A DNA stretch of 64,000 nucleotides from Escherichia phage RCIP0363. Positions 30,502-31,609 of the stretch are shown one piece after another. The stretch is from the sequence record PV464739.1; one strand, given 5' to 3'. Numbering within the stretch: the stretch's first letter is position 1; the number at the start of each line of letters is the position of its first letter. The translations under genes were made by a program, and so were the position numbers. The notes beneath the pieces were generated by a model. That model was not told where the DNA came from, searched no databases, and worked only from the letters and a program-made list of their open reading frames with translations.

Positions 30502-31094
30502 CACTCAAACTCCTTATTCATCACTTGTTCCAGCGCATAGGCATAAGCCTGATCAGTCGATTTGATAAACGTTCCGTTGTACATAACACCTTTACGGTCC
30601 TTGATGTCTTCATAGGCGGCTTGAGCGCAATCAGACAGTCGAAGTCCATAATCATGCGCTACGCCGGAAAGATAATCGGCAGCGGCCATGATAGTGACAT
30701 CAATATCCATGCTCTGATTTTTAGCAATGGCGTCACCAAGCCGTCCAAGAGTTTTTGCCAAGCGAAGAATAAATGAGTGAGGGTGAGCGCCTTTGTCAGC
30801 GCAACCGCCGCCGTTGATGTCTTCGATTTTTGCACCGTTTTGCGCGGCAAGAATAGTTAACACAACAAGGCAATCGCCGATGTCGTCCTTGATTGCGGCT
30901 TGTAAATCACAGATGGCCTGCTCTGTATATCCGATTTCAGGGTCAAAGAACACAAGGTCATGTAATTGATCAATGTGGTCGGTCAACTCCCCAAACTCGC
31001 TAATAAGCTTCGGGTATTGGTCCTTAAGGTCGCAGCCTTGGATGATGTTACGGTCAGAAGCCCACTGGCGAATGTTTGCATAAATCTGGTTCAT
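30501..31094 (-). CDS. mazG: MazG-like nucleotide pyrophosphohydrolase
   Basis: LISEFGELTDHI matches the EExGE-type MazG motif; all-alpha composition. Confidence 0.55.
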   Translation of the reverse strand: MNQIYANIRQWASDRNIIQGCDLKDQYPKLISEFGELTDHIDQLHDLVFFDPEIGYTEQAICDLQAAIKDDIGDCLVVLTILAAQNGAKIEDINGGGCADKGAHPHSFILRLAKTLGRLGDAIAKNQSMDIDVTIMAAADYLSGVAHDYGLRLSDCAQAAYEDIKDRKGVMYNGTFIKSTDQAYAYALEQVMNKEFE

Positions 31095-31609
31095 TTATTT
31101 TCCTTTGATGCGTTGAATTGATCAATTTTAATTTTAGCCTGATTATAAGTATCAATCAAGCTATTAACCTTCTCTTTTAATCGGTTTGTTTCTGCGGCGA
31201 ACTGAACAAGAAAACTGACATCTTCTTCTGATAGTCCACAGTTTCCTTCTGGGATAGAGAGGCGTCCAGTGGTCGCAGAGTCGGGCATACTCCTGAGTAA
31301 TTCACGGGAGCAGCTGAGTTGCTCGCGCAGCTTGATATTCCCAGACTTGTAACGAGCAATAGTGTCATCAGCAACCAGTTGCGCTTCCTGGCGACCCTTC
31401 TCATATGCCGATGCCGATTCAACCTGTAAAGATGCAATTTGCTCTTCGAGTGCATTTATCTTGTCCTTACGCTCATTAAGCGATGTCAGATATTGATTAT
31501 CCTTGGCCAGTGATGCGTTGGTTTGCTGAAGGTCTTCAACGTATGATCCAGCGGCGAACGCGCCAACAAGGGCCAGAATCTTCAGAAGCGGTACAATTCT
31601 TTCTATCAT
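31091..31609 (-). CDS. Rz-like i-spanin
   Basis: N-terminal membrane segment IVPLLKILALVGAFAAGSYV followed by coiled-coil; a lipoprotein ORF is embedded in another frame. Confidence 0.5.
   Translation of the reverse strand: MIERIVPLLKILALVGAFAAGSYVEDLQQTNASLAKDNQYLTSLNERKDKINALEEQIASLQVESASAYEKGRQEAQLVADDTIARYKSGNIKLREQLSCSRELLRSMPDSATTGRLSIPEGNCGLSEEDVSFLVQFAAETNRLKEKVNSLIDTYNQAKIKIDQFNASKENK
31177..31404 (-). CDS. Rz1-like o-spanin lipoprotein, embedded
   Basis: Entirely inside the Rz-like gene in another frame; MRRVARKRNWLLMTLLLVTSLGISSC has a positive n-region, hydrophobic core and a lipobox-like ISSC. Confidence 0.45.
   Translation of the reverse strand: MRRVARKRNWLLMTLLLVTSLGISSCASNSAAPVNYSGVCPTLRPLDASLSQKETVDYQKKMSVFLFSSPQKQTD

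Follow-up and report, generated by a model that had tools for sequence, protein, structure and literature searches.

Escherichia phage RCIP0363 carries, in the 64,000-nucleotide stretch of DNA analyzed here (PV464739.1; hereafter the window), a pair of genes on the minus strand, one lying wholly inside the other, that very probably specifies a two-component spanin of the embedded type and serves as the outer-membrane-disruption device of a Wifcevirus myophage. The outer gene encodes a 172-residue inner-membrane subunit (i-spanin) and the nested gene, in the +1 frame, a small lipoprotein (o-spanin). This reading is carried by the anatomy of the gene pair, by purifying selection on both frames, and by homology to spanins that reside in a canonical lysis cassette. 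The pair itself is already known, from GenBank records of related phages and from Kongari et al. 2018 (PMC6139136), and in that sense is an ordinary finding.

Kongari et al. list Escherichia phage ECML-117 as encoding an embedded two-component spanin, with both subunits assigned to singleton families, and their coordinates fit the window locus: the two starts are 205 nt apart and the nested gene spans 0.395–0.834 of the i-spanin length. The ECML-117 i-spanin (JX128258) is 98.8% identical to that of the window, differing at two residues (M107V, S132R), and ECML-117, Mansfield (MK903282; genes 057/058) and Bas98–101 share the same genes, neighbors and orientation, with o-spanins approximately 97% identical to that of the window. 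The Mansfield and Bas98–101 records annotate both subunits; most other Wifcevirus records describe the outer gene as a “hypothetical protein” or only as an “Rz-like spanin” and omit the nested o-spanin. Nucleotide comparison places the window itself in Wifcevirus, a genus of PB1-like E. coli myophages with genomes of about 68 kb: a 5-kb stretch around the spanin locus is 98.6% identical to Escherichia phage vB_EcoM-Ro157lw, and 94–98% identical to some 28 Wifcevirus records, among them ECML-117, WFH, WFC, FEC19, Mansfield and Bas98–101.

A preliminary description of the locus, made from its letters alone, portrayed the outer product as i-spanin-like, with an N-terminal anchor and a coiled coil, and closer analysis bears this portrayal out. 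Following a short MIER N-terminus, a hydrophobic segment at approximately residues 5–23 (IVPLLKILALVGAFAAGSY) corresponds to the single N-terminal transmembrane domain by which i-spanins are recognized (Kongari et al. 2018), and the positive-inside rule leads us to expect an N-in, C-out orientation, as in a type II membrane protein. An AlphaFold2 model computed from six sequences (mean predicted local distance difference test score, 78) depicts the expected periplasmic domain of helices broken by a linker, with one helix at residues 5–106, an unstructured linker at 107–127 and a second helix at 128–171; the ECML-117 protein is predicted by Pepcoil to contain one coiled coil (Table S3 of Kongari et al. 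2018, PMC6139136). Periplasmic cysteines are available to both subunits: Cys100 and Cys124 of the i-spanin are invariant in six sequences, and the mature o-spanin has one further cysteine, all of them kept in the relatives. A sequence search of solved structures returned only weak coiled-coil look-alikes, such as SYNZIP (E ~0.1), and a distant DNA search of E. coli genomes found no prophage copy of the gene.

The family relationships of the i-spanin emerge from profiles. The protein matches PHROG 1327, “Rz-like spanin”, over the full length of the profile (E 9e-27; residues 6–160 on profile positions 9–156 of 158). An exhaustive profile search recovered 227 cluster representatives at E ≤1e-3, those listed being 116–215 residues long, and 36 of 46 homologues sampled match Pfam PF03245, “Bacteriophage Rz lysis protein” (best E 8e-19). 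When the family profile was aligned to lambda Rz with hhalign, the two matched with a probability of 92.9% (E 3.8e-7, 60 columns), and Cys100 was aligned with Rz Cys99. Profile comparison thus identifies the i-spanin as a divergent member of the Rz superfamily, linked to it transitively. Filing the pair directly under the Pfam Rz or Rz1 family was considered and ruled out, since neither protein matches a curated model. The likeness to lambda Rz/Rz1 that had been proposed at the outset stands for the architecture and, as regards sequence, only for a remote relationship of the i-spanin. The o-spanin is like Rz1 in its role and architecture, but no homology between the two could be detected.

Beyond the Wifcevirus clade, the nearest homologues are the ORF63 pair of Yersinia phage PY54 and gp065 of Pantoea phage LIET2. 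Their i-spanins are 29% and 40% identical to that of the window, respectively, and in both a nested +1-frame o-spanin is approximately 50% identical, with CP.LPP.D..L...ET.D(Y/F)Q..MS.FLF as a common motif. PY54 differs from the window phage in being temperate and in carrying the pair as the last gene of a cassette comprising holin, glycoside hydrolase and Rz; the PY54 o-spanin also has a short signal peptide and no upstream in-frame start. The place of the PY54 pair in a holin–endolysin–spanin cassette is a separate, contextual argument that the genes act in lysis.

The PY54 cassette bears on a rival explanation, namely that the two genes form an envelope-modifying or superinfection-exclusion system—for instance, one based on a receptor-blocking or cell-protecting lipoprotein—expressed together with the replication genes. 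Such a system would sit comfortably within the replication and nucleotide-metabolism block, translationally coupled to the MazG-like gene and 2.5 kb from an endolysin gene on the other strand. However, in PY54 the spanin position is taken by homologues of both proteins, the wider i-spanin family is that of Pfam Rz, and the same slot in related phages houses spanins of other families, variously embedded, overlapped or separated. Scattered lysis genes are, moreover, normal in virulent phages: the spanin genes pseT.3/pseT.2 of T4, likewise a virulent myophage, lie outside the holin/endolysin cassette and not near either gene (Kongari et al. 2018, PMC6139136), although they are separate rather than nested and belong to an unrelated sequence family. 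We consider an exclusion function very unlikely.

Whether the nested open reading frame amounts to more than chance is decided by comparison with relatives; by itself, a single sequence gives it no significance. After synonymous-codon shuffling, 274 of 2000 trials (14%) still had a +1 frame open over 92 codons or more, the lipobox rule is satisfied by about seven unrelated open reading frames in the window, and the match of the nested frame to phrog_4306, “Rz-like spanin”, is weak (E 7e-4). The open +1 frame was accordingly dropped as evidence after the shuffling, and comparative evidence was used instead. Each of these results would suit a scenario in which only the 172-residue helical membrane protein is real, the nested frame is an untranslated by-product, and the outer membrane is breached in some other way.

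The relatives tell a different story. A protein search identified four metagenomic relatives with i-spanins 52–65% identical to that of the window, on contigs that keep the gene order DNA polymerase III alpha, SNF2 helicase, DUF7307, Pam3-gp34-like protein, i-spanin, MazG-sized open reading frame and ligase, with the endolysin next, on the other strand, in contigs long enough to include it. In all four the +1 frame is an intact open reading frame, at 59–64% identity, with a lipobox at the same place and a second conserved cysteine; the +2 frame is full of stops. Lipobox equivalents (ISGC, ISSC or TSSC) are kept in loci L003–L006, PY54 and LIET2, and the 92-codon frame is open in 28 of 28 public Wifcevirus records. 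Down to 29% i-spanin identity, the open reading frame, lipobox, second cysteine and a motif of the form CP.(L/M)PP(L/V)D...ET.D(Y/F)Q..MS.FLF are all retained, and at that distance conservation is higher in the o-spanin (about 50%) than in the i-spanin that surrounds it. The variation in i-spanin codons points the same way, third-position diversity (mean pairwise) being 0.283 inside the 75-codon overlap and 0.575 outside it. Third positions are invariant at 33 of 75 codons within the overlap and at 7 of 72 beyond it (Fisher p = 2.4e-6; Mann–Whitney p = 6e-10), and the effect is also seen when only codons for invariant i-spanin residues are compared (p = 0.002). Suppression of third-position variation only within the overlap, together with a Shine–Dalgarno sequence and ATG that are retained while the overlapping i-spanin residue changes, counts against a by-product, which we judge extremely improbable. 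These patterns of substitution indicate that both reading frames are under purifying selection and that the nested gene is real.

The o-spanin has two candidate starts, defining forms of 92 and 75 residues, and published annotations are split between the shorter (Kongari et al. 2018) and the longer (Mansfield, Bas101). Both starts lie 3n+1 from the outer ATG, at 154 nt (long) and 205 nt (short), and so specify the same +1 frame; either would yield, after signal peptidase II cleavage, the same 50-residue mature lipoprotein. The short form, which reads MRRVARKRNWLLMTLLLVTSLGISSC and then ASN..., has a 25-residue signal peptide, and its ISSC conforms to the canonical lipobox [LVI][ASTVI][GAS]C. 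The lipoprotein signal ascribed to this frame in the preliminary description is indeed predicted: the 75-residue form satisfies a PROSITE PS51257-type rule, with the cysteine at position 26 and four lysine or arginine residues among the first seven. The rule is also satisfied in four relatives, where the +2 residue is Ala or Val. In the window this residue is Ala rather than Asp, which predicts sorting of the o-spanin to the outer membrane. In the 92-residue form the cysteine falls at position 43, beyond the range of 15–35 that the rule allows, and the signal peptide would be unusually long (43 residues) and very basic.

An AAGGA lies 8 nt upstream of ATG 31455, and all five divergent sequences keep both AAGGA and ATG. 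In the i-spanin frame, the codon contributing the “AT” of this ATG varies among AAT, TAT, CAT and GAT (N, Y, H, D), and the retention of the ATG despite a changing i-spanin residue suggests selection on the ATG itself. Before ATG 31404 there is no recognizable Shine–Dalgarno sequence. Between the two starts lie 17 codons that are basic and otherwise unconstrained (third-position diversity 0.56). One possibility is that both conserved starts are used, giving signal peptides of different lengths.

Table 1 Features of the spanin locus and its presumed lysis partner (positions in the window)
Feature	Position	Strand	Basis or remark
i-spanin gene, 172 residues	31091..31609	-	open reading frame list; phrog_1327 match; AlphaFold2 model
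Codons of the i-spanin transmembrane segment	31541..31597	-	hydropathy scan and sequence
o-spanin gene, long form, 92 residues, +1 frame, wholly within i-spanin gene	31177..31455	-	open reading frame list; conservation
o-spanin gene, short form, 75 residues, from internal ATG 31404	31177..31404	-	form in Kongari et al. 2018
Lipobox I-S-S-C	31327..31338	-	rule-based test; Cys26 of short form is predicted lipidation site
AAGGA Shine–Dalgarno sequence for long o-spanin start, within conserved i-spanin codons R-K-D	31464..31468	-	sequence
GGTG ribosome-binding site of i-spanin, 4 nt before ATG	31614..31617	-	sequence
Intrinsic-terminator-like hairpin, 9-bp stem, 6 G-C pairs, T-tract	31618..31649	-	directly upstream of i-spanin; terminator in Mansfield annotation
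ATGA overlap of i-spanin stop (TGA) and MazG-like start (ATG)	31091..31094	-	open reading frame coordinates and sequence
GH19-type endolysin	27912..28556	+	Pfam Glyco_hydro_19 E 1e-7; phrog_181 endolysin E 8e-70

Set beside lambda Rz/Rz1, the window pair shares a fully nested +1-frame o-spanin gene, an i-spanin that runs from N-terminal anchor through helix, linker and helix, and an o-spanin predicted to be a small outer-membrane lipoprotein, with one additional cysteine. It differs in having a longer mature o-spanin (50 versus 40 residues); in the placement of the nested gene, which reaches from 0.30 or 0.39 to 0.83 along the i-spanin length rather than from the common 0.4–0.5 to 0.9–1.0; and in its surroundings, since the pair is not beside a holin or endolysin gene and is instead co-transcribed with the genes for MazG and ligase.

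Reading frames also gave rise to a side observation on Kongari et al. 2018, in whose Table S4 (supplementary file 5) the “Frame” column follows strand rather than offset. ECML-117, for example, has a start-to-start distance of 205 nt (the +1 frame) and is given as frame 2. Pairs on opposite strands differ in frame at equal start-to-start distance (Gifsy-1/Gifsy-2 at 223; CUS-3/epsilon34 at 199), and FSL_SP-010 and FSL_SP-012, with an equal overlap of 107 on opposite strands, carry different frame values. The count of 116 o-spanins in the -1 frame in that study may in part be an artifact of strand handling.

The outer-membrane device of Pbunavirus, the closest well-studied group and one with the same regional gene order as the window, is of another kind. 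The spanin of PB1-like Pseudomonas phages is unimolecular, with AWAC as its lipobox (Kongari et al. 2018, PMC6139136); it is a single protein with lipobox and C-terminal membrane anchor, encoded near the terminase. We located the copy in Pseudomonas phage PS44 as gp08, near the terminase (L013 4869-5270, minus strand), where it is annotated only as hypothetical; the window contains no homologue of this protein and no other credible lipoprotein open reading frame. The outer-membrane device thus differs between the Pseudomonas and E. coli branches and has been exchanged between lineages that infect different hosts. Such exchange could be taken to mean that the embedded pair is a decaying remnant whose job is done by another factor, such as a disruptin-type peptide or a unimolecular spanin, a notion that is scarcely tenable given that no PB1-type homologue exists in the window, that both frames are intact in 28 genomes and four divergent relatives, and that both are under purifying selection.

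Several points nonetheless weigh against a spanin pair. Neither window protein matches any Pfam or NCBIfam spanin model when the whole libraries are scanned, and for PF03245 (Phage_lysis) the i-spanin not only falls short of the gathering threshold but gives no match even at E 0.1. Pairwise BLAST aligns the i-spanin to lambda Rz at E 0.78 and finds no match between the o-spanin and Rz1, and the mature o-spanin has 4 prolines in 50 residues, compared with 10 in 40 for Rz1. The o-spanin start is ambiguous between the two forms; the spanin genes are co-transcribed with those for MazG and ligase, downstream of a terminator-like hairpin; and annotated relatives, a hydropathy scan of all open reading frames and the region near the terminase pointed to no convincing holin in the window. 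The literature searched yielded no experimental paper on this spanin sequence family.

In lambda, the inner-membrane i-spanin Rz and the lipidated outer-membrane o-spanin Rz1 are bound through their periplasmic C-terminal regions and linked by disulfides, and once endolysin has removed the peptidoglycan the two membranes are brought together. By analogy with Rz/Rz1, a membrane topology, lipidation, complex formation, membrane fusion and endolysin dependence can be proposed for the window pair. The 172-residue i-spanin would insert in the inner membrane by its N-terminal helix and project its two long helices into the periplasm, while the nested gene would give rise to a lipoprotein of about 50 residues, lipidated and resident in the outer membrane. 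The two would join through their periplasmic C-terminal parts, probably stabilized by intermolecular disulfides involving the i-spanin's Cys100 and Cys124 and the second cysteine of the o-spanin, Cys40. After the GH19 endolysin clears the peptidoglycan mesh, the complexes would fuse or otherwise disrupt the two membranes, freeing the progeny. Spanins do nothing before wall degradation, so early expression alongside MazG and ligase would be harmless, and the hairpin upstream of the i-spanin is probably an attenuating terminator.

Expression of the pair appears to be tied to its neighbors. The ATGA overlap implies co-transcription and translational coupling of the i-spanin with the MazG–ligase genes. 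The ribosome-binding site of the i-spanin is the one marked for ECML-117 in Kongari et al. 2018 (Table S1, PMC6139136); this GGTG was also considered as an instance of CTGGG, a promoter motif of phage 14-1, an assignment that was rejected. The strong terminator-like hairpin separates the i-spanin from the gp34-like gene and comes within about 10 nt of the ribosome-binding site; between the hairpin and the i-spanin start there is no sigma-70-like promoter. With the hairpin ahead of the i-spanin, the spanin–MazG–ligase genes would need read-through or an unrecognized promoter. A hairpin with a T-run follows the gp34-like gene in 21 of 27 related IMG/VR loci, where the stem sequences are unrelated, and in L003–L008.

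The wider setting is that of a phage whose lysis genes are dispersed, as is well known for genes scattered away from the endolysin in virulent phages. The coordinates of Bas101 trail those of the window by about 40 nt; in that phage, structural genes occupy the plus strand up to the endolysin, and a replication and nucleotide-metabolism block occupies the minus strand from about 46 kb toward it. The GH19 endolysin, which has no N-terminal membrane or signal-arrest-release segment, is the presumed lysis partner of the pair; it lies 2535 bp away on the opposite strand, much as first reported. Of the flanking genes named at that stage, the downstream MazG-like gene is confirmed (phrog_1992, E 1e-62). 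The upstream gene is Pam3-gp34-like, and its earlier label of “SSB-like” (single-stranded DNA-binding protein) is weakly supported at best.

The search for a holin extended to the near-terminase region, in which some Pbunavirus records place a “holin”, and no holin is annotated in any public Wifcevirus record examined. Converging on the endolysin is a two-gene unit (28582..29351, minus strand) flanked by hairpins at 29433..29454 (minus strand) and 28560..28579. One of its genes encodes a 180-residue protein with a cleavable-looking signal peptide (...TASA/EN) that is kept in relatives including Pantoea phage Kyle, and the other a protein of 70–76 residues (phrog_5165); neither looks like a standard holin. 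Another nearby gene carries a lysis label in some Pbunavirus records: in the annotation of Pseudomonas phage JJ01, the DUF7307 (Pam3 gp33-like) homologue is called a “u-spanin”, following the same name in phage E215 (PMC9583000). As a spanin candidate, DUF7307 (32587..33144 in the window, minus strand; L008 3627-4247) was rejected: neither a lipobox nor a membrane segment is present in its versions from the window, PS44, MTx and L003. The label looks like a mis-annotation.

The location of the pair between replication genes had seemed out of keeping with a spanin. It does lie in the replication block, but a survey of related phages indicates that it is not anomalous, the slot after the gp34-like gene being a recurrent home of lysis genes. 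Across 38 IMG/VR loci with a gp34-like gene at least 47% identical, the slot is occupied by the Wifcevirus spanin pair in 4, by other embedded pairs in 7 (two of them phrog_312 plus phrog_11621; E 1e-38, 6e-9), by overlapped pairs in 2, and in Xanthomonas phage XcP1 by a membrane protein and a separate phrog_11951 “Rz-like spanin” lipoprotein; phrog_1544 is found in 15, and nothing recognizable in 9. Spanins thus fill 14 of the 38 slots and belong to at least four families, several of them unrelated, in embedded, overlapped and separated arrangements. The unrelated pairs include L021 4415-4948, L041 4371-4892, L028 4425-4947, L045 4415-4958 and L027 4442-5369, with further examples in L029 (4663-5510), L043 and L047–L049. 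In L029 and L047, an 84-residue open reading frame with two membrane segments and a holin-like look sits just upstream of the slot spanins.

In Pbunavirus and Myosmarvirus, as well as in Kyle-like and BcepF1-like phages, the occupant is phrog_1544, a 201-residue membrane protein. Pseudomonas Pbunavirus PS44 (gp54, L008 5289-5894) and Serratia phage MTx (MTx_064, L007 5440-6045) encode it between the gp34-like gene and MazG, and IMG/VR examples include L019, L020 and L040. The protein has a glycine-zipper-like N-terminus and C-terminal hydrophobic segments, and resembles Pfam GTA_holin_3TM weakly, below threshold (E 0.018); the window has no homologue of it. It is conceivable, if tentative, that the slot, mostly preceded by a terminator-like hairpin and followed by MazG or ligase, is a conserved lysis-gene site across the whole PB1-like supergroup, in which unrelated cassettes replace one another.

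For Wifcevirus, the conservation and dual-coding evidence would justify annotating both spanin genes across the genus. Beyond it, the slot survey and phrog_1544 are only mildly new leads, with the phrog_1544 protein as the first lysis-gene candidate. The survey also gives an inexpensive positional hint for tracing lysis genes not yet located in PB1-like phages, some of them in use for phage therapy. Were the slot reading true, phrog_1544 would function in lysis, most likely as the holin that is missing, for example, in Serratia phage MTx, whose annotators found neither holin nor spanin.

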